Assembly: GCA_963837425.1 (NCBI GenBank)
Contig: CAWINH010000002.1
Span: forward strand, 129,500-193,499
Length of the DNA: 64,000 nt
Direction of reading: 5' to 3'
Source: an uncultured Chloroflexia bacterium
GTDB lineage: Bacteria > Chloroflexota > Limnocylindria > QHBO01
Both the position numbers and the translations under genes were made by a program. Below the pieces are notes generated by a model. That model was not told where the DNA came from, ran no database searches, and saw only the letters and a program-made list of their open reading frames with translations. This document shows, piece by piece, positions 13,858-32,312 of this stretch. Position 1 is the stretch's first letter. Every line of letters starts with the position of its first letter.

Positions 13858-14215
13858 GCTTCGCGAGCGTTGGCGTCCGGTCCGATGTGCGCCCAGTGAA
13901 CGCATCGGACACCGAACCCCCCGTATCAGGCCCGAATGTCACGCCTCGTGCACATTTCGGCCGTCCAAGCCCTGATTTCAGCCCTCCGATGTCCGATGTG
14001 CACGCCTGGCGCACACGCACGGCAGGCACGCTTCGCGAGCGTCGGAGTCCTGGCCGATGTGCGCCCAGTGAACGCATCGGACACCGAACCCTCGGTTTGA
14101 GGCCTGAATGTCACGCCTCGTGCACATCTCGGCCGTCTAGGCCCCGATTTCAGCCCTCCGATGTCCGATGTGCACACCTGGTGCACACGTGGTGCGCGAC
14201 CGCCACGGCTGGATG
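13858..14215. repeat. MITE-like element family A, two tandem copies of about 180 bp.
   Basis: Unit 13858-14030 is about 90% identical to unit 14031-14215. Imperfect terminal inverted repeats: gtgcgcccagtgaacgcatcggacaccgaa ... ccgatgtccgatgtgcacgcctggcgcacacgc. Related copies are at 28.0, 30.3 and 32.2 kb. Confidence 0.75.
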
Positions 14216-14304
14216 CTCCCGGACCTGGAGCCCTGCCCGAAGGTTGGCGGCTCCCGGAGTTTGGCGGCTCCCGGAGTTTGGCGGCTGAGGCGTAGGCTTG
14301 GCCG

Positions 14305-14673
14305 ATGCGGCTCCTGCCGGCGCTCCTGACCCTCACCGCAATCGTCTCGCTGGGATATGCGCTGGCGACCCTCGTGGCGCCGGGCTTCATGCGCGACATC
14401 TCCGCCGCGCCGAGCGAGGACGCCTGGCTCCGCTACCAGCTGCCGCTCTACATCGGCCTGGCGATCGTCAGCCTGGCCGCCGCCCGCGACCTGGTGCCGA
14501 CGCCGGGCGTGGTGTGGGGGATCGCCGTCGTGTGGGCGGGGCTCTTCGCGGTGCTCGTCATCAACCTGGCCACCGGCGACGAGCCGTGGAGCGCGCTCGT
14601 CGTCTTCCGGCTCGTCTTCGATCCGGGGATGGCGTTGGCGATCGGGGGCGCGCAGCTCCTGCGCGAGGACTGA
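14305..14673 (+). CDS. Small membrane protein, paralog of the protein at 8289..8663.
   Basis: 122 aa, sharing ...RDxSAAPSE...LAAARDxVPxxGVVWGIxVVWAGLFxVLV... Confidence 0.5.
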   Translation: MRLLPALLTLTAIVSLGYALATLVAPGFMRDISAAPSEDAWLRYQLPLYIGLAIVSLAAARDLVPTPGVVWGIAVVWAGLFAVLVINLATGDEPWSALVVFRLVFDPGMALAIGGAQLLRED

Positions 14674-14733
14674 CGCGCGGGCGCACGCGGAACGGCGGAA
14701 CGACTGACGGGTTGCGACACGAGAGCTGTCGCG

Positions 14734-15021
14734 ATGGCGATTCAGGATGACGCCATGGACACGAACCGATGGATCGATTTCGAGCTCGCCGTCGCCGCAC
14801 TGGGTGCCGCGGTTCGCGTTCGGATCCGCGACGTCGAGGAGCGCTGGGTGGCATCGGTCCAGTACGGCCCATCCGTGACCGATGGACTGGGCGCGACCGC
14901 CCGGCAGGCGCTGATGGCCGCGCTCGCGCCGCTCGGCGCGCGGGCCACCGCCGCGGTGATGGCCGAGCCGGCGATGTTCGGCGCCAGCGCCCGGCTCCGG
15001 CAGGTTCAGGCGAATGGCTGA
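14734..15021 (+). CDS. Hypothetical small protein.
   Basis: 95-aa ORF. Weak support. Confidence 0.3.
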   Translation: MAIQDDAMDTNRWIDFELAVAALGAAVRVRIRDVEERWVASVQYGPSVTDGLGATARQALMAALAPLGARATAAVMAEPAMFGASARLRQVQANG

Positions 15022-15049
15022 GGACATTCCCACGCAGTAGCATCTGCTC

Positions 15050-15913
15050 GTGACCTTCCGTCGGGGCGCCCGGCTGGATCCGGGGCAGGTGCGCGACCTC
15101 CGGGGACGCGGCGGGCTGGCGATGGGCGGCGGCATCGTGGGTGTCGCCGCGCTCGTCATCTACCTGTTGGTGGGCGGGGACCCGGGCCAGCTGCCGCTCG
15201 ACCAGCTGATCAACATCCAGGTCGGCACCGGCTCCGGCCAGACCTCGGACCTCTCCCAGTGCCAGACCGGCGAGGACGCGAACAATCGCGACGACTGCCG
15301 GATCGTGGGCTACGTGAACTCCGTCCAGGCCTACTGGAGCAGCGAGCTGACGAACTACGAGCTGGCGCCCACCACGTTCTTCTCCGGCTCCACCGCCACC
15401 GGGTGCGGGACCGCCACGAGCGACGTCGGGCCCTTCTACTGCCCGGCCGATGCGAGCGTGTACATCGACCTGGGCTTCTTCGACGACCTGCAGTCCCGCT
15501 TCGGCGCCGAGGGCGGTCCCTTCGCGGAGGCCTACGTCATCGCCCACGAGTACGGCCACCACGCCCAGGACCTGATGGGCACCCTGGACCAGGGAGGCAG
15601 CCAGTCCGGGGCGACGTCGACATCGGTCCGTATTGAGCTCCAGGCGGACTGCTATGCCGGGGTCTGGGCCACCAATGCCGTGGATACCGGCTACCTCGAG
15701 CCGATCTCGCAGGATCAGGTGGCCCAGGCGCTCGACGCGGCGGCAGCGGTGGGGGACGACCGCATCCAGGCCAGCACCGGTGGCCAGGTGAACCCCGAGA
15801 CGTGGACCCACGGCTCATCGGCCCAGCGGCAGGAGTGGTTCGGGTGGGGGATGGTCCACGGCACCCCCGGCGCCTGCGACACGTTCAGCGGAGACCTCTC
15901 TCCGGGCGCTTAG
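15050..15913 (+). CDS. Putative neutral zinc metallopeptidase, YpfJ-like.
   Basis: N-terminal TM helix and an HEYGHH zinc-binding motif. The overall pattern matches YpfJ / Zn_peptidase_2. Confidence 0.75.
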
Positions 15914-16028
15914 CGGTCCGCGGGCGGTGCGTGCACGCGCCACAGAGGCGCCCAGGGTCATGGCCACGGCGTGGGCCAGTCCATAGAATGGAGCCGCTGC
16001 CCACCTCCGGACTGAATCCGCACGAGGT

Positions 16029-17504
16029 GTGACCACAGCCATGCTCCGCCGTTTCTCCTCCATCGTCGCCGCCCTCGCCCTGCTCGCCTCCACGGCGCAG
16101 CTGGCATCCGCCGCCACCAGCATCGGTACGGTGGTCAGCGCGAGCAACGACTCGGTCACGAACAACGAGATCACGATCGCGCTGAACCCCACGAAGCCGA
16201 GCAACGTGATCATCGGCTACAACGACTGCAACCTGAACGAGGGCTGCGGCATGAGCTACTCCACCGACGGTGGGCAGACGTGGGCGCCGCACTCGTTCAT
16301 CCCGGGCATCACCCGCTACGACAACGACGGTGACACCTACGAGGGCGCCGGCATCTACGACTTCGCCGGCGACCCGGCCGTCACCTTCGGGCCGGATGGG
16401 ACCGCCTACTTCGCCTGCTACGGCTACCTGTACGCAAACGCCGCCGCCCCGAAGGGCGGGGTGGCGCTCTTCGTCTCGCGCTCGACGGATGGCGGCCTGA
16501 CCTGGGGCGCGCCGGTCAAGCTCGACACGTTCACCGGACCCGGCAACGGGAACGGCGTGAACAAGGGCAGCAACGGCCAGTTCCCCGACCACGACGCGAT
16601 CGCCGCCGACACCTGGGCCGGTAGCCCGTTCGAGGGCTCCGTCTACGTCGCCCAGGCGCAGTTCCACGGAAACACCAAGGGCGTCATCACCCTCTTTGCC
16701 TCGCACGATGGCGGCGTGACCTGGTCCAAGCCGGTCACCGTCAGTTCCGGTCGCCAGTACGCGAACCAGGACGCCCACCCGTTCGTGGGTCCGGACGGAT
16801 CGGTCTATGTCTCGTTCGACACCCAGCAGGGTGGGACCGCCAAGAGTCCCCTCAGCATCCGAATCGCCAAGTCCACGGATGGCGGAGCCACCTTCGGACC
16901 CAGCTACACGGTGGCGAAGATGGTCGATCCGGTCCTGAGCGACCTGCCGAACAGTGATTACCGGGCGGGCAGCTACCCGGCGTCGGGGATCGATGCCGCG
17001 GGGCGCATCACGGTCGCCTGGAACGATCGTCGCGGCGGCGGCGCGTCGAACATGTGGTACACCCGTGCCCAGAGCTCGGACCTCACGACCTGGACCGCTC
17101 CGGTGCAGCTCAAGCAGAGCGAGGGCGAGCAGTTCTTCCCGTGGGTGAGCACCGCGCCGAACGGCCGGGTGGACATCGTCTACTACGACCGGACCCGAGA
17201 CCCGAGCGACGTGCTGAACTACGTGACCTACTCACGCCTGGATCCGACGTCGGCGACCGGCCTCGGAGTGACAGCGACGAGCTACGGTGACTGGAGCCCC
17301 GCCTTCAACGGCAACGCCGATGGCGGCCAGACGACGACGAGCTGCACGCCGTTCATCGGGGATTACATCGGGGTCGCCTCGGATGACACGCAGGTCTACC
17401 TGGGCTGGACCGGGAACGGGCCGTCGAACCACCACGACGCGTTTGGGAACGACACGACCTGCGACGTGAACCAGGACGCTTTGACCGTGGCGATCGCGCC
17501 GTAG
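16029..17504 (+). CDS. Secreted BNR/Asp-box repeat protein, sialidase or glycosyl-hydrolase-like beta-propeller.
   Basis: Signal peptide plus four S-x-D-G-G-x-T-W/F repeats (STDGGQTW, STDGGLTW, SHDGGVTW, STDGGATF). Confidence 0.75.
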   Translation: MTTAMLRRFSSIVAALALLASTAQLASAATSIGTVVSASNDSVTNNEITIALNPTKPSNVIIGYNDCNLNEGCGMSYSTDGGQTWAPHSFIPGITRYDNDGDTYEGAGIYDFAGDPAVTFGPDGTAYFACYGYLYANAAAPKGGVALFVSRSTDGGLTWGAPVKLDTFTGPGNGNGVNKGSNGQFPDHDAIAADTWAGSPFEGSVYVAQAQFHGNTKGVITLFASHDGGVTWSKPVTVSSGRQYANQDAHPFVGPDGSVYVSFDTQQGGTAKSPLSIRIAKSTDGGATFGPSYTVAKMVDPVLSDLPNSDYRAGSYPASGIDAAGRITVAWNDRRGGGASNMWYTRAQSSDLTTWTAPVQLKQSEGEQFFPWVSTAPNGRVDIVYYDRTRDPSDVLNYVTYSRLDPTSATGLGVTATSYGDWSPAFNGNADGGQTTTSCTPFIGDYIGVASDDTQVYLGWTGNGPSNHHDAFGNDTTCDVNQDALTVAIAP

Positions 17505-17550
17505 GCGAGCCGGTGGGCGGCGGCCTCGGGCCTGGTGTCTGAGCCGCCGC

Positions 17551-19177
17551 CTAGCGCACCAGGGCCTCGATCACCTCCTCGGCCGCGCGCTCGCTCTGCC
17601 GGTCGCCGCTGACCGCGCAGACGAAGGCGATTCGATCGAGGGTCAGGGTCTCGAGATCCGTGGCGGCCATCACCCCCGCGGTGCGCGGCACGTCCCGGAG
17701 CAGCGCGAACTCCCCGAACGACTCGCCTGCCCGGTCCAGGCGGGCCACCACCCGCGGGCCGACTCGGACCTCGACGGCGCCCGATTCGATGATGTAGAAG
17801 CGGTCGCCCACGTCGCCCTGCCTGATGACGGCGTCGCCGGCCGTGAAGTGCATCGGCACGAGGTCGGCGGCCAGCTGCTCGAGGACGGTCATCGGCAGCA
17901 CGCGCAGCATGGGCACCGCGCGGAGGAGCGCCAGCTCGCGCTCCGGGATCACCGCCTGCCGATCGGCGGCGACCATCGCCCGCCAACCGATGATGGCCGC
18001 GGCCGGCAGGAAGGCCCCGGTCGCGATCCACGCCCCGCGCACCCCGAGCGCGCTGACCAGGGCGGGCGCCAACGCCGAGCCAATGCCCACCGTCAGCATG
18101 ACGAGCGACTCGAGGACGGCGAAGACCCGGCCCCGGACCGCGTTCGGGACGATCCGCTGCATGAGCGAGAAGCCGGCGACGTCGACGAGCGCGTTGCCGA
18201 CGCCCACCGCCGCCAGCGCGACGAGCCCGACCCACGCGACCGGGGACGAGCCCGACCACGAGGATCGGCAGGCCCCAGAGGAGGAGGCCGCCAAACAGCC
18301 CCGGCGCCAGGCGGCTGCGGCCCACCAGCACCACCGTCGCGAGCGCGCCGAACAGGGCGCCGGCGCCAATCGCGGCATTGAGGTAGCCGACCCCTTGCTG
18401 TCCCATGTCGAGCATCTCCACGGCACCCGCCACGATGAGCACGCTCAGGATCCCGCGCACCAGGGTCTGCGAAGCGAAGAGGCCCAGGAGTTCGCCGACG
18501 TGGGGAACCTGGACCGATGCGCGCAGGCCGCCGAAGAGCGTGTCGGCCACGTTCCCGTGGGGTGGCGGTCGCAGCGGGCGCGCCGGGCGGGCCCTGCTGA
18601 TGCTGAGGACCGCGATCCCCACCAATGCCGCGGGCGCCGCGAAGGCGAGCGGGGTGCTGCCGGTCGCCACCAGCGCCCCGCCCAGCACCGGGCCGCCCAG
18701 GATCCCGATCGACTCGACGGTGCTCGACGCCACGTTGGCGCCCACCAGCTCGTCCGGCGCGCGGGCCAGGGAGGGGAGCATCGACATGTAGGCCGGCCGA
18801 CGGAGGACGGCCAGCAGCCCGTCCACCGAGGCGATGACGTAGACGACGATCGGCGGCCAGCCAAGGATCGCGGCGAGCGTCGCCGAGCTGAGGAGCAGGC
18901 ACCGACCGGAGTTGACGGCGAGGAGGACCCGGCGGCGGGAGAATCGGTCCGTGACCGTCCCGAGCGCCGGAGCCAGGATGCCGGCCGGGAGGTTCCGCGC
19001 CAGGCCCACCAGGCCCACCACCCCCAGCCCGCCGGCGTCGTAGGCGTACACGTAGAGGGCCACCAGCCAGGCCCACTCGGCCGCATTGCCGGCCATCCAG
19101 GCCAGCAGCGCCCGCGCGATCTCCGGGTTGCGGACCACCCGGCCCATGGCCGCCAGTGCTTCCCGGAGACCCTCCAT
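17551..19177 (-). CDS. MFS transporter fused to a C-terminal cyclic-nucleotide-binding domain. There is an apparent 1-nt frameshift near 18240.
   Basis: The N-terminal 330 aa or so of ORF 17396..19279 are MFS TM helices. ORF 17551..18426 in another frame continues with MFS TM10-12 and a cNMP-binding domain (GESFGEFALL...). The junction is at ctcgtccccggtcgcgtgg. Confidence 0.6.
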
Positions 19178-19351
19178 ACCGACTCTCAGGCTAGTCGCCC
19201 GGGCAATCAGGCGGCCCGATGTGACGCGGGCGGCCTGGCCGAAGCTCGGCGTGGGCGCCGCACGCCGGCGCCAACGCACGGGGTGCAGGGTCGAGCTCGA
19301 TCGCCCAAGAGCCGGCGATCACGCTCTGAGGCTGGGGTATCGTGGTCGGCC

Positions 19352-20050
19352 ATGAATCGGCCGGCAGACGACCGGGCAGCCGCGGAGTCCCTGGTCGCGA
19401 GTATCACGGCCTCCGTCCGAGCATGGTCGGAGTCAGATTCCCACGACCCGGGCGTCACGCTGCTGGAGGTCCTCGCGTATGCGGCCGACGCGCTCTCCGC
19501 GTACCAGGATCGCGTGGCCGGCGAGGCGTCCATCGGCACCGGGCGGCGGTTGTCGCAACTTCGCGTCGAGTGTGATGGTGAACGCTGGCTGGAGGTCGCG
19601 AGCCTGGACGGATCCGGACCGGATGATCCCCACTACGTCGTGAGCGCTGCGGAGGACGGGGCGACGATCATCCAGTTCGGCGACGGCGAGCACGGCCGGC
19701 GCCCCGCGTCCGATGGGACGCTGCAGGTCGCCTATCGCCGCGGTTCGGGGTTCACATCGGTCCTGGTCCAGGAGGGGAGGGTCGTGATCGATGCGGACTG
19801 GAATGCGCCCGCCGAGCCTGCGCTCTGTGGGATCTACCGTGCGCGAGTGCTCGATGCCAGCGACCCGACCGGGAAGGGGCGTCTTCAGGTCCAGATCCCG
19901 GCGGTCTCCGGCTCGCCGTCGGGTTGGGCCGCCCGCTGCGTCCCGGCGGGTGCTTCGGCGGACCTGCCGGCAGTCGGCGACCTAGTGTGGGTGGCCTTCG
20001 AGGCCTGCGATCCGAACTACCCGGTCTGGCTTGGCCGATTGGTCCCCTGA
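19352..20050 (+). CDS. Phage or contractile-injection-system spike/baseplate-like protein with a gpV-type OB-fold at the C-terminus.
   Basis: C-terminus GKGRLQVQIPAVSG...WAARCVPAGAS...AVGDLVWVAFEACDPNYPVWLG resembles P2 gpV (Phage_base_V). N-terminus has a baseplate-like motif (GVTLLEVLAYAADALSAYQDRVAGEA). It lies in the same frame as the long antisense ORF 17825..20050. Confidence 0.5.
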   Translation: MNRPADDRAAAESLVASITASVRAWSESDSHDPGVTLLEVLAYAADALSAYQDRVAGEASIGTGRRLSQLRVECDGERWLEVASLDGSGPDDPHYVVSAAEDGATIIQFGDGEHGRRPASDGTLQVAYRRGSGFTSVLVQEGRVVIDADWNAPAEPALCGIYRARVLDASDPTGKGRLQVQIPAVSGSPSGWAARCVPAGASADLPAVGDLVWVAFEACDPNYPVWLGRLVP

Positions 20051-20090
20051 CGAGGGAGCTCTCCGTTCTTCCCGACGCGTGGCGGCCCGA

Positions 20091-20236
20091 CTGCTCAACC
20101 GCGCTTGCAGGGAGCCTTATCCGGGTGGAATGCGCAGATCGCCCCCGACGTGTCGGCCGCCCACGCTCAACCGGCGCCGTCCTCCCGCGCTCGACGGCGC
20201 GCTGAGCTGGATAAGGTGCAGGGCATGAGCGGTTGG
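20091..20236. repeat. MITE-like element family B, about 150 bp.
   Basis: Terminal inverted repeats tcaaccgcgctt ... atgagcggttg, and internal inverted repeat gagccttatccgggtgga / gagctggataaggtgc. Confidence 0.65.
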
Positions 20237-20407
20237 GGATTGAACGGCCGCTTTGGCTCCCTGGGTACTCAACCGAGCCTCCCAGGAGCGCAATCCAGGA
20301 GCGCAATTCCCGCTGAGGCCGGCGTCCGCGGGGAGCACTACCACCACGCCCGCTCGGGGGCGACCGATAGGCGGGGGCGCGGCGCGCACCGTAAGATCGC
20401 GGACCGG

Positions 20408-21133
20408 TTACGTGCCGGTGATGAGGCGCTCGCGGTTGAAGAGCGGGCTGACGAGGCGCCAGCCGAGGACGTCGACGACGAAGAGCACCACGCCAATCGT
20501 GTCCAGGAGACCGCGCGTGGGATGGATCACGTCGAACGCGAGCAGGGTGGTGAGGATCGCGAGTGGCAGGCTCGCGAGCAGGCTGAGCTGCTGGGCGACG
20601 CGGGCGTCGCTCATTCGCGTCGAGATGGCCACCGCAATCCAGACCGATGCCGCCGCCAGGAGAGGCGTGAGGATCAGCTGGGCCAGCAGGTCATCCGGGC
20701 GAAGGAGCGCGGAGGCCAGCGCGGGCTCGGTGAGCGCCTCCAGGATCCCCAGGAAGGCCCCGAAGACGAGGTAGGCGATCACGAGCGACGGGAGGAGTGC
20801 GGCGAGTCCCTTGCCGAGGAGGAACTCCCGCTCGCGGATTGGCGTCGTGAGCACCGGCTCAAGGCTGCCCTGCTGTCGCTCACCGGCCACCGAGTACGCG
20901 GCGAGCACCGCCGGAGTGAGGACCGGGACGGCGAGCATGTAGAGAAGCACGTGCCGGTTGCTCAGCTCGGCCGCGGTCGAGGCCGGGATCGAGAGCAGGA
21001 CGATGACCGGCTGGATGAGGAAGATGAGCGGGAAGATCGCGGTCGCCACCAGGACCGACCGGTTGCGCCGATACTCCCGCAGCTCCTTGCGCATCACGGC
21101 GCCGATGCGCCGCGCGCTGAATCGGCGATTCAT
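20408..21133 (-). CDS. ABC-2 type transporter permease.
   Basis: Six TM helices. Start taken at MNRRFSARRIGAVMRKELREY. Overlaps the upstream ATPase gene by 4 nt. Confidence 0.7.
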   Translation of the reverse strand: MNRRFSARRIGAVMRKELREYRRNRSVLVATAIFPLIFLIQPVIVLLSIPASTAAELSNRHVLLYMLAVPVLTPAVLAAYSVAGERQQGSLEPVLTTPIREREFLLGKGLAALLPSLVIAYLVFGAFLGILEALTEPALASALLRPDDLLAQLILTPLLAAASVWIAVAISTRMSDARVAQQLSLLASLPLAILTTLLAFDVIHPTRGLLDTIGVVLFVVDVLGWRLVSPLFNRERLITGT

Positions 21134-22113
21134 GCCCCGGCGACCTCTCGGTCCTCGTCCACGAGCTGGAGATACACGTCCTCCAGGGAGTGGCGCGTCT
21201 CGCTGATCGAGAGGACGTCCGCGTTCGCGGCCACCAGGGCGCGGGTCAGAGCCGGGGCCGCGAGGGTTGGGTCCGAGACGGTGACGAGGTAGCCCGCGGC
21301 ACCGTCCTGCCGCCACCCGTCGACCGCGGGGACCTGCGCGAAGAGGCCAGCGGGATCGGCGAGCGGTTGCGCGGTGCGGACCGCGAGGCCACGGGTGAAG
21401 AGGCGGTCGCGCAGCTCATCGGGCCGGCCGATCATCTGCAGCCTCGTGTTCAGGATCGCGACCCGGTCGCAGAGGCGCTCCGCCTCCTCGAGCCGATGGG
21501 TGGTCAGGAAGATCGTCACGCCCCGCTCTCGGAGCCCCTCGATCAGCTCATGGACGTCGCGTCCCGCCGCCGGGTCGAGGCCGGCGGTCGGCTCGTCCAG
21601 GAAGAGGAGCTCCGGGTCGGGGAGCAGGGCGCGCGCCAGGGCCACTCGCTGGCGGAGCCCCTTCGAGAGGCGGCTGCAGGGATCGGTCGCCCGGTCCGCC
21701 AGGTTGACCGCGGCCAGGGCTTCTTCCACCCGCCGGCGGGGGTCGGGAGTCTCGTACAGATCCGCGAAGCATTCGAGGTTCTCGCGGACGGTGAGGCGCA
21801 GGTAGAGGCCGGGCGCCTCGGGCATGATCGCGATCCGGCGCCGGATCGCGACCCCGTTCTCCGGGGTGAGAGGGATCCCCAGGACGCTCGCCGAGCCCGA
21901 GGTCGGGGAGATGAGCGTGCCGAGGGTCCGGACCGTCGTCGTCTTTCCGGCGCCGTTCGGGCCAAGGAACCCGAACACCTCGCCTTGGGCGACCTCGAAC
22001 GAGACGTCGTCCACCGCGACCCGGGCGCCCGGGCCCTCGCCAAATCGCTTCGAGAGATGGTCGACCGCGATGGCCGGAGCCGCGCCGGATTGCTCGCTCA
22101 TGACGCCGGCCAT
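21130..22113 (-). CDS. ABC transporter ATP-binding protein.
   Basis: Walker A GPNGAGKTT, signature LSKGLRQR, Walker B LLFLDEPT. Confidence 0.85.
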   Translation of the reverse strand: MAGVMSEQSGAAPAIAVDHLSKRFGEGPGARVAVDDVSFEVAQGEVFGFLGPNGAGKTTTVRTLGTLISPTSGSASVLGIPLTPENGVAIRRRIAIMPEAPGLYLRLTVRENLECFADLYETPDPRRRVEEALAAVNLADRATDPCSRLSKGLRQRVALARALLPDPELLFLDEPTAGLDPAAGRDVHELIEGLRERGVTIFLTTHRLEEAERLCDRVAILNTRLQMIGRPDELRDRLFTRGLAVRTAQPLADPAGLFAQVPAVDGWRQDGAAGYLVTVSDPTLAAPALTRALVAANADVLSISETRHSLEDVYLQLVDEDREVAGA

Positions 22114-22148
22114 TGTCCACCGATTGGCGGCGGGTATGCTGTCGCCGC

Positions 22149-22778
22149 ATGCGGCCGATCGTCGTCGTCTCCGCGTTCGTGGTGGTTGCCTTCGCCGTGG
22201 TCGCTGTCGCCGACCTGGGGGCGGGGAGCTGGGCGAAGGTCGTGGACGGCTCGTACGGGTTCGAGCCCGTGACCAGTGACCTCGCGCTGCTCTCCGCGCA
22301 GCCCGACTGCGAATCGCCGGGCTCGGCCACCTACCCCTGCGTCCGCCAGTTCGCCTTTGCGCCGGACGCGACGCTCACGGAGTGGGTCTCGGTCCGCAAC
22401 GACGGCCCGCTCGGGGTGACGCTGGAGGGCGTCCCGGACGATTGGCTCGGCGGGTTCGTCGAGTCGATGCTCAGCCGGCCGGTCGCCGCACTGGATGGAG
22501 GCGATCCAGCCGTGGCGATGGCGGCCGGGAGCCTGGAAGGGCCCGCGTTCACCGCCGTTGCGCTGGACCCCGGGGCGGAACGGCTCATTGGCCTCGAGTT
22601 CCGGACGACCGGCGACGTCGCATTCGCCTGCCAGCATTGGATGGAGGGCAGCGCGCTCGGCTGGGACGCCGTGCCGATCGCGTGGCACTGGCTCGCGTTC
22701 CGGCACGAGGTGGAGTTCTCCTTTGTCGCCCCCGTCGACTTCATGGCGCCAACCGCCGCGGACTGCTCGGCATCGTGA
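22149..22778 (+). CDS. Hypothetical membrane-anchored protein.
   Basis: N-terminal TM helix (IVVVSAFVVVAFAVVAV). No motif recognised. Confidence 0.4.
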   Translation: MRPIVVVSAFVVVAFAVVAVADLGAGSWAKVVDGSYGFEPVTSDLALLSAQPDCESPGSATYPCVRQFAFAPDATLTEWVSVRNDGPLGVTLEGVPDDWLGGFVESMLSRPVAALDGGDPAVAMAAGSLEGPAFTAVALDPGAERLIGLEFRTTGDVAFACQHWMEGSALGWDAVPIAWHWLAFRHEVEFSFVAPVDFMAPTAADCSAS

Positions 22779-23809: not shown

Positions 23810-24220
23810 ATGGGCGCCGGAAAAGAGGAGGAGCGGGTGCTGGGATCGAGTCACGCGTATTCGGGCTTCTCGGTGGACGACATCGGCAGGGCGAAGGCCT
23901 TCTATGCCGATGCCCTGGGGCTGGAGGTGACCGAGGCCCACGGGATGCTGACCCTGCACCTCGCCGGCGGCGGGACGGTCATTCTGTACCCGAAGGAGAA
24001 CCATCAGCCGGCGACGTTCACTGTCCTGAACTTCCCGGTGCCCGATATCGACGCGGCGGTGGACGGGCTGGCGGCGGCGGGCGTCACATTCGAGCGCTAC
24101 GAGGGGCTCGACCAGGACGAACGCGGGATCGCCCGGCCACCGAAGCCGGAGTACGGCCCACCCATCGCCTGGTTCACCGATCCGGCGGGCAACATCTGCT
24201 CGGTCCTCCAGGACACCTGA
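23810..24220 (+). CDS. VOC-family (glyoxalase/bleomycin-resistance fold) protein.
   Basis: [21 protein letters not shown]...FTDPAGN. Confidence 0.7.
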
Positions 24221-24227
24221 CCGGGGT

Positions 24228-24305
24228 ACGTCGCGCCCGGGATGTCGCGCCCGGGATGTCGCGCCCGGGATGTCGCGCCCGGGATGTCGCGCCCGGGATG
24301 TCGCG
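24228..24305. repeat. Tandem 15-bp microsatellite (gatgtcgcgcccggg), about 5 copies.
   Basis: Read directly from the sequence. It abuts the MITE-B copy at 24308. Confidence 0.8.
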
Positions 24306-24307
24306 CC

Positions 24308-24457
24308 GACTCTTCAACCGCGCTTCTGAGGAGCCTAATCCCGGTGGAGGCGCGAGCGGCACTCGGGAACGATGGGTCGCCACGCTCACGCGGGGGCGTG
24401 GGCACCCCTTGGGAGCCGCGTCGAGCTGGATAAGGTGCCGGGGATGAGCGGTTGAGC
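24308..24457. repeat. MITE-like element family B.
   Basis: Terminal inverted repeats gactcttcaaccgcgctt ... gatgagcggttgag. Internal gagcctaatcccggtgga / gagctggataaggtgc. Confidence 0.65.
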
Positions 24458-24547
24458 AGTCAGGCTGCGCGACGGCCTGCGCGACGCCTGCGCGAGGGGA
24501 TCTGCGCGAGGGGCGCCGCGAGAGCGCTGCACGAGAGGGCGCCGCGA

Positions 24548-25069
24548 TCAGATGCCGAGACGGCTCCAGCCGCGGCGCGGCTGCGGCTGCGGCTTCGGCT
24601 TGGCGTTGCTCGCGATCGCCGCGAGGTACTTCTCGATCTCCTTCCGGTAGCGGTGGCCGGAGGTATGGCGCGTCAGCCAGCGCAGGTAATCGGGATCGTG
24701 GAGGGCGAGATCGGCGATCGTCCAGCCATCGTATCGGCCAAAGTCGACGACCATCGAGTCGCCGCTCATCGAACGCCGCGGCGGCGGAGTCGCGGCCGCG
24801 CCCATCGCCCAAGCCTTCGGCGTGGGCGCAGGCTTGGCGCTGATCGTGTCGTAGGCCACTCGCAGGTCCGGCGTGCGGATCTGCGCGTACGCCTTGTTTA
24901 GTTCCGCCATCCGTCTATCGGCGTCTGAAAAGGCGTTGACGTCCGGGTGGTAGAGGGATGCGAGGGCGCGGAAGGCGGCCTTCACGACCACCTGCGGGGC
25001 GTCGGATTGAATGTGCAGGACCCGATACGGATCGCGGGTCCCCGTCTCCTCTGGCATGTTCTCCATCAT
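24548..25069 (-). CDS. J-domain (DnaJ-like) protein.
   Basis: DPYRVLHIQSDAPQVVVKAAFRALASLYHPD carries the HPD motif. The C-terminal domain is of unknown function. Confidence 0.6.
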   Translation of the reverse strand: MMENMPEETGTRDPYRVLHIQSDAPQVVVKAAFRALASLYHPDVNAFSDADRRMAELNKAYAQIRTPDLRVAYDTISAKPAPTPKAWAMGAAATPPPRRSMSGDSMVVDFGRYDGWTIADLALHDPDYLRWLTRHTSGHRYRKEIEKYLAAIASNAKPKPQPQPRRGWSRLGI

Positions 25070-25236
25070 CGCGCGCGCAGCGCGCGCGGCAAGCCTGACG
25101 GAGGGGGGAGTACGAATGTCCGTGACCGGGGCTCCACGAACCGGATGCCTCACCGCCGGGTGGTGAGTTGCATCATGCCGTCGGCCATGCAAGGATACGT
25201 AACGGATCGTATTCTTTGGCAGGAGCCACAGCACAC

Positions 25237-25467
25237 ATGAACAACGAATGGCGGGCCCTCGATCGGATCGAGCAGGCCACGCAGCAACAGCCCTACTGCA
25301 TCTGCGGTCAGCCGACCACCCCGGTGGCGCAGCCGGACGGTCTCTGGCTGGAGTGCACCACCATCGGGAAGCCAGTGCGCGGCTGGCGGCACAGTCTCCT
25401 CAGAGCCCTGACCGGCGGGGCCCACGTGCGCCGGCAGATCCTCGACTGCGTCTCGCCCGCGGCCTAG
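25237..25467 (+). CDS. Hypothetical small Cys-containing protein.
   Basis: 77-aa ORF. Weak support. Confidence 0.3.
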   Translation: MNNEWRALDRIEQATQQQPYCICGQPTTPVAQPDGLWLECTTIGKPVRGWRHSLLRALTGGAHVRRQILDCVSPAA

Positions 25468-26076
25468 TCCGCGGCCCGACCCGCGGCCCGGCCCGCGGCC
25501 GCGTAGCCGCGCATGACCGAGTCCACGATCTTGGCTGCGAACCGCGCATCGAGCCGCCCGCCGAACATGAGTCGGAAGTAGACCGGGCCCACGAGCAGCT
25601 CGGTTGCGGTGCCGACATCGATATCGGGCCGCAGATCACCCCTGGCCACGCCGCGCCCAATGACCTCCGCGACCTGGTTGCGCCGATCCTGGACGACGGT
25701 GGCCCGGAACGGGTCTCCGAGCGCGGGGTCCAGGGCGATCTGCGAGAGCAGGGCGCGAATGACCGGTCCGAAGGGCGTGTCGATCGACCGCCCGCCGCGC
25801 GTTGTTGACGACCGCCAGCAGCTCCTTGCGCGTGTCTCCCGCGTCCGGGACGGCGATGTGCGGGGCGGCGAGCTCCATGAGCAGCGCCAGCGCGAGCTCC
25901 TGCTTCGAGCTCCAGCGCCGGTAGATCGTCGCCTTTCCGACCCCGGCTCGAGCTGCCACGTGCTCGAGGTGCCAGTCCGCGAACCCCTCCTCCACGAGAA
26001 GCTCACGAGCTGCGGCGAGGATGGCGCGGTGCACGCGCTGGCTGCGCGGCCGCCCTCGCGGCCGCCGTTGGGCGTC
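25464..26076 (-). CDS. TetR-family transcriptional regulator with an apparent frameshift near 25795.
   Basis: N-terminal HTH (HVAARAGVGKATIYRRWSSKQEL) is in the frame of ORF 25636..26379. The C-terminal ligand-binding domain is in the frame of ORF 25464..26534. The junction is at gcgcggcgggcgg. Confidence 0.6.
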
Positions 26077-26165
26077 CATCGGAATATGATACGGCGCGGT
26101 TCGTATCGGCGGCAATCGCGGCTGGGCCCGCCCGTGCCGCGTAGGCCGGCCGGTAGACTCGGCGG

Positions 26166-27951
26166 GTGACGCGGACGCTGCCCGATTCGGACGAGGCCTG
26201 GGACGACTGGGTCGCCGCCAGCCGGACTCGCAACTGGCTCGAGGACGATCCGCTCCTCGATTGGCTGACCCGCTTTGGGCGTGACCACGGCCTCCTGCCT
26301 GATGACGAGCTGGGCACCTACGACGAGCGCACCGACATGCGCGCGTTCGTGCTGGCCAAGGGCCTCGAGTTCGAGGCACGGGTGATGGACGTCATCCGCT
26401 CGCAGCTCGATTGGGTCCGCATTGCGGAGGGCCCGCGGGATTCCCGCGACCTTGCGAAGCGCGAGGAGACGATCGCGGCCATCCGCGAGGGCGTCCCCGT
26501 CATCGAGCAGGCCGTCCTGATGGACCCGGTGCATGGCACGTACGGGGTCGCCGACCTGCTCGTCCGATCAGACCACCTCAATGACCTCGTCCCTGGGACC
26601 CTGATGCCGGATGAGGCCATGCTCCCCGCACCTGCCCTCGGCACCCCGTGGCACTACCGGGTCGTCGACATCAAGTTCCGGACGCTCGACCTGCTGAAGA
26701 ACGGCGGCGCTGCATCGGGCCTGGCGAACTACATGGCCCAGGTCTGGCTCTACAACGAGGCGCTCGCCCGCGTGCTGGGCATGACCCCGCCCGCCTCCTT
26801 CCTGCTCGGTCGCAGCTGGGATCAGGGCAAGGAGCGCGGCGACGGGTGCTTCGACTGCCTGGCGCGCGTGGATCGCGATCGCGTCGTCACCGCCGACCGG
26901 GGCGAGCTCGAGACCGCCACCCTGCGAGCCGTCGAGTGGATCCGTCGACTCCGTCGCGAGGGGGCCGACTGGAGTCCGCTCCCGGTCCCGACCGTACCCG
27001 AGCTCTATCCCCACGCCCGCAACAGCCAGGATCAGCCGTGGCACGGCGCGAAGGTACGGATTGCAAACGAGCTCGCGGAGCTGACCCTGCTGCCGGGGAT
27101 GAACCCGGTCCTGCGGCGGGACGCGCACGCGCGCGGCATCCTCCGCTGGGACGATCCGCGGGCCAGCAGCGGAACGCTCGGCATCGGCCGCTGGCGTGAG
27201 AAGACGGACGCCGTGCTCCTCATCAACCGCGACGTGCCGGAGCTCGTCGTGGCGCCGGAGCGGATCACCCGGGCGGATCCCGCGTGGCGGACCCCCGCCG
27301 CGGTGGAGTTCTACGTCGACTTCGAGACCGTCTCGAACATGGACGACGACTTCAGCCGGCTGCCGCGAATCGGCGGGCAGCCGCTCATCTTCCAGATCGG
27401 CTGCGGCTGGCTGGAGGACGGGACGTGGCGCTTCTAGCAGTGGACCGCCGGTCGGCTGACCGAGGTCGACGAGGCCGCCATGATCGACGCCTGGCTGGCG
27501 TTCATGGAGGAGCCACCTCGCCGCCCGCGGCCTGGTCTGGGCCGATGCGCGCCTCTACCACTGGTCCGCGGCCGAGACCTCGACCCTCGACAAGGCCTAC
27601 AACTCGGCGCGGGAGCGGCATCCGGAGCGCGACTGGCCCCACCTGCCGTGGTTCGACCTCCTGAACCGGCTCGTCCGCGAGGAGCCGGTCACCGTCCGCG
27701 GCGCGTTCGGCTTTGGCCTCAAGGCCATCGCGAGCGGGATGCATCGGGCGGGGCTGATCGAGACGACCTGGACCGATGGTCCGGCCGATGGGCTGGGCGC
27801 CATGATCGGCGCCTGGTGGTGCGACGGCGAGGCGGAGCGGACCGGGGTCACGTTGCCCGAGATCGAGCTCATGCAGGAGATCGGCCGCTACAACGAGGTC
27901 GACTGCCGCTCGATGGCCGAGGTCCTCGGGTGGCTGCGGGCGCACCGGTAA
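26166..27951 (+). pseudogene. Cas4/RecB-like PD-(D/E)xK nuclease fused to an RNase-H-like exonuclease domain (TM0106-family-like). It is disrupted by an in-frame TAG at about 27435 and a frameshift at about 27520.
   Basis: VDIKF nuclease core, DFETVSN...LIFQIGCGW, and a C-terminus ...EIGRYNEVDCRSMAEVLGWL spread over three reading frames. Removing one C in gagccacc restores the frame. Confidence 0.6.
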
Positions 27952-27997
27952 GGGTCCCTTCACTCGAAGGCGCCGCGGCCGTGCCCGTGCGCCAATC

Positions 27998-28148
27998 GCG
28001 TGCGCGCAGCGCACGCATCGGCCATCGGGAGGGCTCCTGGAACTGCCCGAGATGACGCCCCTGGTGCACATTCAGGCCTTCCGGGGCCCGATTCGGGTGC
28101 TTCGGTGTCCGATGTGCACACCTGGCGCACATCGGGACGCGCGGGGAG
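27998..28148. repeat. MITE-like element family A.
   Basis: gtgcgcgcagcgcacgcatcgg ... ttcggtgtccgatgtgcacacctggcgcacatcgg. Confidence 0.7.
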
Positions 28149-28185
28149 AGCACCGGGAGTCCGTGGGGATACAGGGAGCGGAGCC

Positions 28186-29071
28186 TCAGCTCCCGCCGAT
28201 CAGCGCGTCGAGGATCTGGTCCATGGAGTCGACGATCAGCGACAGGTGACCGTGGTCGTCATGGAGGTGGGGGCAGGCGCCGCCAACGTGGGCCGCCAGC
28301 CACTCGCCGTGGGCGTACGGGACCATCCGGTCGTGCGCGCCCTGCCAGATGTGGACCGGCCCCGGGATGCTCCCCAGCTCGAAGCCCCACGGCCGAACGA
28401 ACGCCATGTCGTCGTCGAACCAGCCCCAGTAACCCTCACGCATGGCCTCGCGGAAGAGCTCGGCGAGCCACTCCGCGTAGTCGTCGCGGATCGACGCGCG
28501 GTCGACCTCATCGGCGAGGTCGCCGAGCGAATCCGCCACCTGCGACGCGGTGAGGTTGCGGAATGCCGGCCAGGCCGCCTCCATGAATGGCACGAGCGCA
28601 TCGGGCCCGTCGAGGGCGTGCCCGAACTCCTCGATGTTCTCGGCCCCCATCCCCGCCATGAAGTCGATCCCCTCTGCCGGGTAGGGCGCGACGCTCGCGA
28701 TCAGCGCAGTGCCGAGCGTCCGATCGGGCATGAGGGCGGCGGTGGCGAGCGCGTGCGGCCCACCGCCAGACCAGCCCATGACCCAGGCCTTGTCCACGCC
28801 GATGGAGTCGAGCACCGTCCGGGCGTCCTCGACGACGTCGGCCACCGTCCGCCCGGGGCGCCGGGTGCTGCCCCCGTACCCGGCTCGCGTGAAGCTCACG
28901 TATCGAAGCCCGCGCTCCGCGAGCTGCTCCACCAGGCGTGGGTAGGGGAGCCCCGCGCCGGGCGTGCCGAGATGGAAGAGGAGCGGGGTGGCCGCCTGGC
29001 GGCCCGGCCTGCCAGACGTCGAGCCGGCGACCGTCCGGGGTCTGGAACGGAGTCGAACGGTCGGTTCTCAT
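28186..29071 (-). CDS. Alpha/beta hydrolase with an apparent frameshift near 28990.
   Basis: GWSGG nucleophile elbow. The N-terminal 30 aa (MRTDRSTPFQTPDGRRLDVWQAGPPGG) are in another frame, and the junction is at ggcggccaccccgctc. Confidence 0.6.
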
Positions 29072-29081
29072 GTGCGCCATG

Positions 29082-29873
29082 CTACGTCGCCCCGGAGCGG
29101 AGCCGGGCCATGATGCGCGCCCCGATCTCGTTCTCCACCACACTGTTCGGGTCGCGGAGTTCGCCCATTGCGGCCTGGATCCCAACCAGGCTGGCGTACA
29201 GGGGTGGACATGTCGGGCAGCGGGCGAGGTGCGCTTCGACCGCAGCCTTCGGCTCGGGCGCCAGCTCGCCGTCGAGGTACGACGAGACGAGGCGGCGGGC
29301 GCGCCAACAACGCATGGGCTGCGCGAGCGAGGCGCGGCGCCGGGCATCATCGGCCGCGAGGGCGTGGACCAGCATCATTCGCCCGCGGCGGATTCGTTGC
29401 TTCGCGGCCGGCAGGCCAATGCGCATCGCGTGCGCCACCTCGGTGCCGGTCCAGTCCAGCGCGTCGTGGAGCACGACGGCCACTCGGTAGATGACCGGCA
29501 GTCGGACGAGCGCGTCCTCCAGCTCGTCGCGGAGCTCGGCGCGCTCCACCACGCGCTCGGGGTCCACGGTGAAGTCATCATCGCGCCAGTCCGCCTCCAC
29601 GGTGGCGAAGTCGAGGAGCGGCGGCGGGTTGCGGCGAGATCGGTCCACCACCCGGTTGACGAGCATCCGGCGCAGCCAGCCGCGCAGTGCGGCCGGGTCG
29701 CGGAGCTGTCCGCGTCGTCGCCATGCGGCGACCACCGTCTCCTGGACGAGGTCCTCTGCCTCTGCCTCGTCGCGGACCAGCCGTGCGGCCAGACGGACCA
29801 GCCACGGCGCCTCGATGGCGAGGTGCGCCGCGAACTGGTCCGACTCCCGGAGATCGGCCTGCGCACGCGTCAT
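29082..29873 (-). CDS. ECF sigma factor fused to a C-terminal zinc-finger anti-sigma (ZAS, zf-HC2) domain.
   Basis: Sigma region 2 (DLVQETVVAAWRR) and region 4, then CWRARRLVSSYLDGEL...HLARCPTCPP (HxxxCxxC). Confidence 0.75.
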   Translation of the reverse strand: MTRAQADLRESDQFAAHLAIEAPWLVRLAARLVRDEAEAEDLVQETVVAAWRRRGQLRDPAALRGWLRRMLVNRVVDRSRRNPPPLLDFATVEADWRDDDFTVDPERVVERAELRDELEDALVRLPVIYRVAVVLHDALDWTGTEVAHAMRIGLPAAKQRIRRGRMMLVHALAADDARRRASLAQPMRCWRARRLVSSYLDGELAPEPKAAVEAHLARCPTCPPLYASLVGIQAAMGELRDPNSVVENEIGARIMARLRSGAT

Positions 29874-29906
29874 GCGTGCATGATGGCCCGCCCGGGGTGC
29901 GCCGGC

Positions 29907-30119
29907 CTAGTGGCGAACGGGTCGGGTGCTGAGCCGCAGGACGGCATACAGGGGACAGATGCCGACCGCCCCGGTGACGCCGGCGATAACGGCGACCGCG
30001 ACGCTGGCCCACAAGAGTGGCGCGCCCGGGATGCCCGCGGCGGCCAGGCCGATGAGTCCGGCGGCCAGCAGGATCCGCACGATCCGATCGATGGTTCCAA
30101 CGTTCTGAGTGAGCTGCAT
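29907..30119 (-). CDS. DUF2892/YgaP-like small membrane protein.
   Basis: MQLTQNVGTIDRIVRILLAAGLIGLAA...ICPLYAVL, about 70 aa. Confidence 0.5.
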   Translation of the reverse strand: MQLTQNVGTIDRIVRILLAAGLIGLAAAGIPGAPLLWASVAVAVIAGVTGAVGICPLYAVLRLSTRPVRH

Positions 30120-30265
30120 GAGTGGGTTCCTCGATATGTGTCCGCTCGGCGCTTCGTGGCGCCGGTCGCGTGGTTCTTCCACACTCATGGACGAGATCTG
30201 CGCGCGAATGGATACCAGGCCACCTCGAGGAGTGCGCGATGGAGGTCGCTGGCTGAAGCCTCGGG

Positions 30266-30352
30266 GTGTGCGCCCAGCGAGCGCATCGGCCATTCGGGAG
30301 CCGATTCCGATGCTTCGGTGTCCGATGTGCACACCCCGCGCACACCGCAGGG
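30266..30352. repeat. MITE-like element family A, short copy.
   Basis: gtgtgcgcccagcgagcgcatcgg ... ttcggtgtccgatgtgcacaccccgcgcac. Confidence 0.65.
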
Positions 30353-30596
30353 GCTGATGCCCCCGCACCTCCCGAACGAGGCTTACTTCTCAGCCCGTGG
30401 TTCTTCCGGGGGCTCCATGGGGCCGATGTCCGGTGCAACCCCGCGTAATTCTCAGCTGGCGGGTGGTGCGTCGCTCGGCCAGGTGCTTGGCTGCGTTGCT
30501 TGCAGCAGGTGAGAGGTATCGCCAATCGCCGGACGTGTGACTCGCCCAACACGGTTCCGCAGTTCGGCCGCAGGGCAAAAGGGGTAGCGTCCCCGC

Positions 30597-32150
30597 ATGC
30601 GCAGCGCCCAACGCACCCGACGGCTTCCCGGCCCGGTCTCGATGTGGGGCCTCGAGGTTGGGCTGCGGGCGATCAGCCGCCGATACGGCGCCCTCCAGTG
30701 GTTCCTCGAGGTCATGCCGCCGGGTCCCGCGGATCGCTTTTCGGCGGCACGCGCCCTCCGCGCGGCGCGCAACGCGGCGCGCGACGTGCCCGCCTATCGG
30801 GACTTCCTGCGCGGGGCCGGCGTCGACCCTGACCGGATCCGCTCCCTGGCGGAGCTCCCCGAAACGGACAAGACGGCGTACATCGACCGTTACCCGCTCG
30901 CCGAGCGCTGCGTGGGCGGGCGACTCCCCCTGCTCGGCACGACGATCGACGAGAGCTCCGGCTCGACCGGGACGCCCTACAACTGGGCGCGCAGCGCGGA
31001 GGAGCGGCGCCACGTGCGACGGATGGTCGCCTTCTTCGCCCGCTACACGTTCGGCGACGCGCCGCTCGTCGTCCTCAACACGTTCTCGATGGGCGCCTGG
31101 GCGACCGGCATGACGACCGCCGCCGCGCTCGAGCAGCGCGGCCTGGTGAAGGCCACCGGGCCGGACATCGACAAGGTGCTGAGCACCATGACCGAGCTGG
31201 GGCCCGGCTATCGCTACCTGCTCGTGGGCTACCCGCCCTTCCTCAAGGTGATCGTGGACGAGGCCGAGAGGCGGGGGATGGACTGGTCCGCGTACCACGT
31301 CGACGCCCTGCTCGGTGGCGAGGGCAACTCGGAGGCGCTGCGGGACTACCTGCTGCGGCGGTTCGCATCGGTCTATTCCGGTTATGGCGTGACCGATGTC
31401 GAGATTGGCCTGGCCGCCGAGACGCCGATCTCCATCGCCCTCCGACGGCTGGCTCGCGAGCGTCCGGACGTTGCCGAGGCGCTCTTCGGTGAGGCGGATC
31501 GGAGCCCGATGGTGTTCCAGTTCAACCCGTTCTTCCACCACATCGAGGTGAACGAGCGCCGCGAGCTGCTCTTCACCGTGGCCCGCCACGCGACCCTCTC
31601 GCCGAAGATCCGCTACAACCCGCACGACGAGGGTGGCGTCCTGCGCGACGACGAGCTGCGGGAGCGGCTCGAGTCGGTGGGCGTCCGGCTGGAGGACGTG
31701 AACCCGCCCGGCGCGCGGCGCCTGATCCGGATGCCGTACCTCTACGTCTTCGGGCGGAAGGATTCGACCGTCTCGGTCATGGGCGCCAACATCTACCCCG
31801 AGGACATCGACGCCGCGATCTACGGCGAGCCGGAGGTCGCGCAGCGGATCCTCAGCTACCAGCTCTCGGTCGTCGAGGCGCAGCCCGGCGAGACGCGGCC
31901 GCACGTCGCCATCCAGCTGCTCCGCGACGATCCCGACGACGCGTTCCGCGACCGGCTGGCGACGCTGCTGACGGAGAGCCTGCGGACGATGAACCGCGAC
32001 TATCGCGAGGCGATTGGCGAGTACCCCGCCCTCCTGCCGTTCATCGTTGAGCTGCACCGGCGCGGCGAGGGGCCGTTCGCCGGCAGCGAGAAGCGGATCA
32101 AGTTCCGATACATCGCCGCCGAGCCCGCCAGGCCAACGGATCGGCCCTGA
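30597..32150 (+). CDS. Adenylate-forming enzyme, phenylacetate-CoA ligase / F390-synthetase-like.
   Basis: AMP-binding motif SSGSTGTP. About 517 aa. The long antisense ORF 30390..32246 is a GC artefact. Confidence 0.8.
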   Translation: MRSAQRTRRLPGPVSMWGLEVGLRAISRRYGALQWFLEVMPPGPADRFSAARALRAARNAARDVPAYRDFLRGAGVDPDRIRSLAELPETDKTAYIDRYPLAERCVGGRLPLLGTTIDESSGSTGTPYNWARSAEERRHVRRMVAFFARYTFGDAPLVVLNTFSMGAWATGMTTAAALEQRGLVKATGPDIDKVLSTMTELGPGYRYLLVGYPPFLKVIVDEAERRGMDWSAYHVDALLGGEGNSEALRDYLLRRFASVYSGYGVTDVEIGLAAETPISIALRRLARERPDVAEALFGEADRSPMVFQFNPFFHHIEVNERRELLFTVARHATLSPKIRYNPHDEGGVLRDDELRERLESVGVRLEDVNPPGARRLIRMPYLYVFGRKDSTVSVMGANIYPEDIDAAIYGEPEVAQRILSYQLSVVEAQPGETRPHVAIQLLRDDPDDAFRDRLATLLTESLRTMNRDYREAIGEYPALLPFIVELHRRGEGPFAGSEKRIKFRYIAAEPARPTDRP

Positions 32151-32175
32151 CTTCGGCCGTGACTTCGGCCCTGGC

Positions 32176-32312
32176 GCGTGCGCCGGGCGCACGCATCGGC
32201 GATCGGGAGGGCTCCGAACTGCCCAGGTGACGCCCCCGGTGCACATTCAGGCCTTTCCTGGGCCGTTTCCGAGGCTTCGGTGTCCGATGTGCACGCCTCG
32301 CGCACATCGGGC
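32176..32312. repeat. MITE-like element family A.
   Basis: gcgtgcgccgggcgcacgcatcgg ... ttcggtgtccgatgtgcacgcctcgcgcacatcgg. Confidence 0.7.

Follow-up and report, generated by a model that had tools for sequence, protein, structure and literature searches.

Miniature inverted-repeat transposable elements (MITEs), non-autonomous derivatives of DDE transposons, are small (<~600 bp) and have no coding capacity. The Correia elements of Neisseria (CREE/NEMIS), which are 100-155 bp long, non-coding, intergenic and often co-transcribed, have terminal inverted repeats (TIRs) of ~26 bp or longer, occur both as full-length forms and as forms with an internal deletion of ~50 bp, show variant combinations of left and right arms, and come with a TA target duplication, a site for integration host factor (IHF), functional promoter elements and hundreds of copies per genome. 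The enterobacterial repetitive intergenic consensus sequences or intergenic repeat units (ERIC/IRU) are 127-bp imperfect palindromes of intergenic regions, conserved across genera, with size variants that arise by internal deletion or insertion and with no known transposase. The attC sites of sedentary chromosomal integrons, such as the Vibrio cholerae repeats (VCR), are imperfect inverted repeats of 57-141 bp. They keep a uniform sequence inside one lineage and separate small accessory genes, some of which belong to toxin-antitoxin modules. In most repetitive extragenic palindromes (REPs) the palindrome is tagged at one end by a conserved, unpaired GTAG or CGTC, and the location of REPs is biased to spacers between unidirectional or convergent genes (PMC3733652). 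Here we describe family A, a family of intergenic palindromic repeats in a 64-kb window of contig CAWINH010000002.1, from a metagenome-assembled genome (MAG) of an uncultured, Limnocylindria-like member of the soil and freshwater Chloroflexota. The genome has 70% G+C and is rich in GC palindromes, and the named homologues of the ligase protein encoded in the window are Ca. Limnocylindria or Chloroflexota MAG proteins. An earlier note on this DNA had proposed a MITE-like or REP-type family of non-autonomous elements.

Copies, anatomy and folding of family A

The repeat search of the window grouped five copies at four intergenic loci (A, B, C and D) into a single family. The 18-mer GTGTCCGATGTGCACRCC, with up to three mismatches allowed, matched exactly five times, always on the + strand, against 0.28 matches expected from dinucleotide shuffles, and the left-end motif matched 10 times against 0.84 expected; a nhmmer profile built from the full-length copies returned just the five known copies in the 64 kb. 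The dispersed family is thus real at the positions where it had been noticed, although the supposed minimum of five loci becomes four loci with five copies. Copies A1 (13882..14018, nhmmer E=1e-35, left terminus CCGATGTGCGCCCAGTGAACGCATCGGACACCGAA, right terminus CCGATGTCCGATGTGCACGCCTGGCGCACAC), A2 (14054..14190), B (27998..28138, + strand) and D (32176..32312, + strand) are full length at ~137 bp, and the size range of 90-180 bp given earlier holds no separate size class, as copy C (30266..30347, + strand, 82-87 bp) is an internal-deletion derivative consisting only of the arms that carry Box 1 and Box 3 (see below). The tandem pair at locus A (13856..14199, + strand) does consist of two adjacent copies, but these belong to a duplicated segment and are not separate insertions: the two 172-bp units (13856-14027 and 14028-14199, spacing 172) each comprise a 137-bp element plus ~35 bp of flank starting with ACGCTTCGCGAGCG and are 91% identical to each other, as are copies A1 and A2.

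All four loci lie inside intergenic regions (A, 13842-14304; B, 27952-28185; C, 30120-30608; D, 32151-32323), as the earlier note had it; by an approximate gene list ~17% of the window is intergenic, which gives P ~8e-4 for four out of four. Locus A is flanked by two + strand genes, and locus B sits between convergent genes for a RecB-like nuclease (ending at 27951, + strand) and an alpha/beta hydrolase (ending at 28186, - strand). Locus C is upstream of a PaaK-like ligase gene, in a spacer whose flanking genes diverge. From the stop codon of this ligase gene (32148-32150) to the start of the RibD_C gene (32324) there is a 173-bp spacer, which copy D fills, beginning 25 nt past the stop codon and ending 12 nt ahead of the start codon. 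Three of the four loci are therefore between unidirectional or convergent genes, all copies are annotated on the + strand, each locus having at least one neighbour on that strand, and the genes beside the loci are unrelated in function. Between loci A and B lie 13.8 kb in which about a dozen genes point in either direction. Some minor features adjoin the copies: GGCGGCTCCCGGAGTTT forms 2.5 tandem repeats (14245-14290) just downstream of copy A2, which are kept in two close relatives (L017 and L018), and a 12-bp tandem duplication, TGACTTCGGCC(G/C) at 32148-32171, starts exactly with the ligase stop codon and stops 4 bp short of copy D, and is not present in a third relative (L010), where the ligase C-terminus differs. 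The RecB-family nuclease-like gene beside locus B (26166-27951) has an apparent +1 frameshift near 27437-27480 where its homologues are single proteins of ~600 aa, and is either a pseudogene or the product of an assembly error.

Alignment of the copies gives a full unit of ~137 bp with three palindromic boxes spaced about 55 nt. The terminal arms are imperfect inverted repeats of ~35-40 bp, each starting with a short hairpin of its own (the 38-bp ends read CCGATGTGCGCCAGGTGTGCACATCGGACACCGAA), so that the reported TIRs are present, together with strong hairpin potential. Box 1 at the left end reads GTGCGC-N3-6-GCGCAC followed by CATCGG, and in copy B (27998..28021) takes the form of a terminal hairpin GCGTGCGC-GCA-GCGCACGC followed by ATCGG, which is a local hairpin in the RNAalifold consensus. 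The central Box 2 (GATGACGCC-CCTGG-TGCACATTC) is represented in copy B by the imperfect palindrome GAGATGACGCCCCTGGTGCACATTCAGG (28049..28076), and Box 3 at the right end, the most conserved part of the family, is the terminal hairpin CCGATGTGCAC-ACCTGG-CGCACATCGG (28109..28135 in copy B). The inverted similarity of the arms continues outside the boxes through non-palindromic sequence (CATCGGACACCGAAGC versus GCTTCGGTGTCCGATG), and reaches up to 52 nt at 83% complementarity when arms of different copies are paired; two kinds of fold are thus open to the unit, a single long hairpin or three local ones. Predicted folds of A1, A2, C and the L010 copy are a single long hairpin, those of B and D have separate terminal hairpins. 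Folding is clearly past that of shuffled controls in three copies (z -4.6, which is A1, -4.7 and -3.4) and weaker in B (-2.5), D (-2.45) and the L010 copy (-1.6), for an overall range of -1.6 to -4.7. RNAalifold favours the local terminal hairpins, with Box 1 pairs 6/22 and 11/17 varying on both sides, a thin record of covariation from five sequences of which two are near-duplicates. Neither strand folds appreciably better than the other, their minimum free energies differing in no consistent direction, although G-U/G-T pairs are more frequent on the strand running from beta to alpha arm in 6/6 copies.

These arm names refer to two versions of the subterminal motifs, alpha (CATCGGACACCGAA) and beta (CATCGGCCATCGGGAGGGC): alpha is the right-hand motif of B, C and D and the left-hand one of A1 and A2, with beta on the opposite side in each case. 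When A-type copies are aligned with B, identity is 74% in direct and 79% in inverted orientation, and only the 14-18-nt subterminal motifs are clearly swapped. A shared orientation tied to transcription was considered and rejected, as the A-type copies align to B and D similarly either way; with the A-type orientation ambiguous, the impression that all copies point in one direction carries no weight as evidence.

The copies do not code for protein. Open reading frames (ORFs) 13887..14288 and 30109..30357 do exist over them, with GC content flat across codon positions, whereas real genes of the window have a third-position GC content (GC3) of 0.8-0.96. The ORF spanning the tandem pair has no homologue among 5.8 billion proteins, and using its translation to find further copies via predicted proteins gave none. 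In line with the earlier note these ORFs are spurious, and family A accounts for several such calls; nor are the copies paralogous gene fragments, a possibility that it had named as fatal to its proposal, as they show neither a codon signal nor a protein homologue. Searches of the whole window against Rfam 15 at gathering thresholds gave no matches, and at E<=1 over the loci the only match was a chance one to the mir-H4 hairpin (27.8 bits versus a cutoff of 90). Scans inside the elements found no sigma-70-like promoter consensus and no intrinsic-terminator consensus. With both strands folding about equally and no Rfam match, the specific structured transcript for which a fold prediction had been suggested is unsupported.

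Close relatives and wider distribution

Close relatives contributed ~30 kb of sequence besides the 64-kb window. In L010, a JGI contig with 90% nucleotide identity over 2.4 kb, a full-length copy is present at locus C (376-512), and the first part of an orthologous copy D begins at position 2368. The tandem pair at locus A is also present in L017 (95.8% identity), and L018 (94-98%) has at this locus a single 172-bp unit which is chimeric between A1 and A2, the signature of unequal crossing-over. From the comparison of these two relatives the tandem pair is a segmental duplication of element plus flank that is polymorphic between strains. Compared with the L010 copy, copy C of the window is missing ~55 nt located between the direct repeats TTGGGAG and TTGGGAAG, and as the L010 copy is full length, that of the window is a 55-nt deletion derivative. 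Counting window and relatives together, the family comprises eight full-length and two partial copies so far. The elements thus recur at corresponding loci in independent assemblies from other samples (JGI 3300081968, ENA ERZ25039533). Paralogous copies are 70-87% identical and orthologous copies 90-98%, the latter diverging at close to the local background rate (for L010, 90% overall and ~91-96% in the arms of C). Gene content also differs between strains: a BNR-repeat gene (16029-17504) is missing from L018 (window 15941-17492 versus L018 11712-11720), which has an extra DUF6508 gene, and the neighbourhood upstream of the Imm5-like gene is wholly different (window 12939 versus L018 8416).

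Beyond these strains the family was not seen. No copy was found in 113 kb from six relatives at 80-86% nucleotide identity, even beside orthologues of the flanking genes. Synteny is extensively rearranged in these relatives, the flanks of the loci no longer align at ~85%, and around the ligase gene synteny breaks within ~40 bp of the gene ends. When proteins of the genes around loci A and B were joined into one chimeric query, no relative exceeded 84% identity. In 185,579 GTDB species genomes, an exact scan with a degenerate 20-mer matched just nine singletons, attributable to chance and all from unrelated taxa. Exact-pattern scans of JGI metagenome contigs (two patterns) and of viral contigs gave no matches, nor did blastn of copy B against phages and plasmids. 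All of these searches were made in collections that evidently do not hold this lineage (the sample of L010 itself lies outside the metagenome set). Judged by the relatives and databases searched, family A appears to be restricted to one species-level lineage, for which it would serve as a marker. It also flags possible sites of assembly collapse or expansion, with one versus two 172-bp units at locus A. The practical value, foreseen for assembly and strain typing, is modest.

Nature and origin of the family

Since the anatomy, the intergenic sites, the narrow lineage range and the derivative forms fit a mobile element, we infer that family A spread as one, and consider it likely, if well short of assured, that it represents lineage-restricted, small, non-autonomous, non-coding palindromic repeats of the class of MITEs and REPINs. 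The latter, like the bacterial interspersed mosaic element (BIME)-type doublets, are pairs of REPs in Pseudomonas fluorescens and Escherichia coli that are mobilised by a REP-associated tyrosine transposase (RAYT) and occur in high numbers along the chromosome. Family A is new as a family and of this well-known kind. It has the size (82-137 bp) and the non-coding nature of a MITE as well as the TIRs (arms of ~35-40 bp), and its derivative forms, internal deletion at C and tandem duplication at A, are typical of such families. An enzyme whose gene lies elsewhere in the genome would have carried the elements to several sites between genes, after the split from the ~85% relatives and before that of the strains at 90-96%, in a single episode in this lineage with decay ever since. 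The changes since the spread are due to host processes only, namely point divergence, unequal crossing-over and replication slippage, for which the 7-8-bp direct repeats around the 55-nt deletion of copy C are the substrate. The family is probably old, inactive and relic-like, with no sign of present movement. If it has any effect now, this may be passive and due to the GC-rich hairpins that it adds to untranslated regions, for instance stabilisation or processing of mRNA at the ligase/RibD_C junction; no pointers to a dedicated function were found.

Several results weigh against a mobile origin. No target-site duplications were found at any consistent boundary in a scan of 16x16 boundary offsets with k=2-9 (2,048 offset/length combinations), a scan that duplications which are very short or have decayed may escape; the top match, of 2 bp in 5/6 copies, is one expected from multiple testing. 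A Pfam scan of most window ORFs of at least 100 aa gave no transposase, RAYT, Y1/HUH (PF01797-like) protein or integrase, and in the related loci no family A ends were found besides the orthologous copies, so that neither scan supplied the autonomous partner with matching ends that would be looked for with a MITE. Empty sites, or any insertion polymorphism, were not seen either: every relative with an alignment spanning locus A (L017 and L018) or loci C and D (L010) has the element there. All five copies fall inside 18.5 kb, and neither the remaining 45 kb of the window nor a further 8.4 kb from one close relative holds another; such clustering could reflect local duplication rather than transposition. 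Of the original proposal of a mobile or REP-type element, what stands is a non-coding, intergenic unit with TIRs and hairpins; no sign of mobility was found, and the canonical REP tag is absent.

How such an element would have moved is suggested in two directions by its own structure. Its hairpin termini and the lack of target-site duplications lean toward a REPIN/Y1-type mechanism, whereas the long non-palindromic inverted arms and the lack of a GTAG or CGTC tag lean toward a DDE-type MITE; the two mechanisms are not separable here, and the family is therefore filed only under the broad MITE/REPIN-like class. The narrower proposal, that family A is a REP/REPIN family moved as single-stranded DNA by a RAYT or an IS200/IS605-like Y1 (HUH) transposase, falls within the reading above and adds a specific enzyme; we regard it as possible though doubtful. 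The enzyme would recognise each terminal hairpin as a REP unit, and two such units in inverted orientation would make up the whole element as a doublet. Both termini (Box 1 and Box 3) are 19-27-nt hairpins, comparable in size to the 20-40-bp REP units; the consensus fold retains them, and at two of the pairs both partners vary. Y1 transposition is expected to leave no target-site duplications, in agreement with their absence here, copy C in its short form matches an inverted doublet hairpin exactly, one strand has more G-U/G-T pairs in 6/6 copies, and 3/4 loci show the location bias known for REPs (PMC3733652). As in REPINs, short GC-rich palindromes are arranged in inverted doublets that can form a larger hairpin, and REPINs too are intergenic, free of target-site duplications and species-specific (PMC3733652). 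The hairpins differ, however, in having no conserved GTAG or CGTC tag of the kind that defines most REPs (PMC3733652): no conserved GTAG/CTAC or CGTC/GACG stands beside Box 1 or Box 3 in any copy, and GACG occurs only in Box 2 of some copies. Family A further departs from REPINs in its third, central palindrome, its longer arms (~137 bp in total), the absence of a RAYT gene or other Y1_Tnp-like ORF among the scanned window ORFs, and its five clustered copies in 64 kb, and the arm similarity through CATCGGACACCGAAGC and GCTTCGGTGTCCGATG is equally typical of DDE-type MITEs.

The stable folds, a Box 3 that is nearly invariant between copies, the + strand annotation of all copies with a + strand neighbour at each locus, the position of copy D between a stop codon 25 nt upstream and a start codon 12 nt downstream, and the retention of copies at orthologous sites in close relatives might instead reflect a functional cis element kept by selection and not spread selfishly, be it a hairpin that stabilises or processes mRNA, a multicopy small RNA or three protein-binding boxes of dyad symmetry about 55 bp apart. 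We hold this to be improbable. A dedicated RNA or operator role is unlikely because orthologues of the flanking genes in the ~85% relatives do without a copy, the neighbouring genes are functionally unrelated and the orthologous copies drift about as fast as the surrounding DNA; there is also no promoter- or terminator-like signal within the copies, no Rfam match bar the one sub-threshold chance hairpin, near-equal folding of the strands and an ambiguous A-type orientation (74% versus 79%). Chance similarity, an assembly artefact or paralogous gene fragments might be suspected in a MAG contig with 70% G+C and many GC palindromes, yet five core matches against 0.28 expected from shuffles, the same elements at the same loci in the independent JGI and ENA assemblies, which by itself refutes this reading, and the lack of codon periodicity and protein homologues reduce this to a negligible probability.

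Recombination sites of gene cassettes, either integron attC-like or a new analogue, would account for a region rich in toxin-antitoxin, glyoxalase and nucleotidyltransferase genes that resemble cassette cargo and are heavily rearranged between relatives, for the break of synteny within ~40 bp of the ligase gene ends, for a ligase gene that has family A copies to either side in the window and copies of another family in relative L013, and for repeat families specific to a lineage, as with the attC sites of chromosomal integrons. We think this very improbable, given ends that have no RYYYAAC/GTTRRRY core sites, Pfam scans that found no tyrosine recombinase in the window, genes of mixed orientation with 13.8 kb and many genes between A and B, and at least three unrelated repeat families interleaved in the region. 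The ends of family A read GTGCGC...CATCGG and CCGATG...GCGCACATCGG, without R''/R' cores (AAC...GTT) and with no GTT at the right boundary of any copy; IntI was not found in the window, and there is no layout of one site per cassette. Integrons, diversity-generating retroelements, retrons and CRISPR arrays were ruled out as well, there being no core sites, reverse transcriptase, integrase or unique spacers. A related view is that family A and the families of sister lineages are junction sites of an undescribed system for shuffling gene modules in Limnocylindria-like Chloroflexota, in which each lineage would homogenise its own site, as chromosomal integrons do, without canonical attC cores or a nearby IntI. 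The bracketing of the ligase gene by different repeat families in two lineages (window and L013), with synteny breaks at the borders, is what suggests it, but such spacers could simply tolerate insertions, and we would give this view only a very small chance; if true, it would bear on the rearrangement of accessory genes in an abundant uncultured group.

Among described elements, the MITE/REPIN-like repeats of family A share with Correia elements their size, TIRs, intergenic position, deletion form and arm variants, and differ in that no TA duplication, IHF site, promoters or hundreds of copies were found, in having no sequence similarity and in belonging to another phylum. With ERIC sequences they have in common a similar size, an imperfect palindrome spanning the whole element, intergenic location and size variants, whereas family A is confined to one species-level lineage and was undetected in the 80-86% relatives.

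Other repeat families and accessory genes of the region

Family A is not the only repeat here. A second, unrelated MITE-like family of ~160 bp (ends GACTGCTCAACCGC...GCGGTTGAGCAGTC, internal motif GGATAAGG) is found at 20080-20237, 20254-20303, 24299-24468, 41754-41925, 48515-48622 and 58418-58456, with some copies partial or in 60-nt tandem, and has a copy at the orthologous place in L017 and L018. One of its copies is abutted by six intergenic tandem repeats of GGGATGTCGCGCCC (24225-24307), and a 246-nt direct duplication (41823-42068 and 48520-48765, 95% identical, 6.7 kb apart) overlaps copies of this family and GCCGATGCG short repeats. Two mutually inverted arrays at 38737-38970 and 61258-61444, 22 kb apart and 84-90% complementary, consist of 4-5 tandem 51-nt units in a REP/BIME-like layout, each unit with two short hairpins (GTCCCGC-TCAC-CGGGAC and GGCGC-TCA-GGCGCC).

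At least two repeat families accompany family A in the window, and related genomes carry unrelated families of their own, made of 100-140-nt palindromic intergenic repeats. In L015, a relative at ~84%, five copies of a different ~140-nt intergenic repeat lie in the same orientation among toxin-antitoxin genes (4761-4900, 7010-7149, 13242-13381, 16355-16469 and 18014-18153), each with three TGACGGCCCGAYACGTCA palindromes (TGACG..CGTCA boxes) 41 nt apart, which carry CGTC/GACG like the 'CGTC-tagged' REPs (PMC3733652). L013 has a repeat of ~105-170 nt (ends GCGTAATTCTCAC...GTGAGAATTAGCG; 318-421, 9809-9912, 11672-11775 and 14513-14561) that is unrelated in sequence to family A and frames the ligase orthologue with copies upstream and downstream, the arrangement that C and D have in the window. 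With several unrelated families in the window and in sister genomes, the turnover of palindromic repeat families seems to be a habit of this clade, the high-GC Chloroflexota studied here carrying several that turn over fast. A full-text literature search found nothing relevant on such repeat families in this class, and to our knowledge they have not been described for it before.

Elsewhere in the window, a C-5 cytosine DNA methylase is encoded beside a weak DndB-like protein (409-2824), and the stretch at 7866-13483 holds several toxin-antitoxin pairs with PIN and ribbon-helix-helix (RHH) proteins, an Imm5-like immunity protein and a nucleotidyltransferase. The accessory and defence-like character of these genes suggests that this is a variable genomic region.

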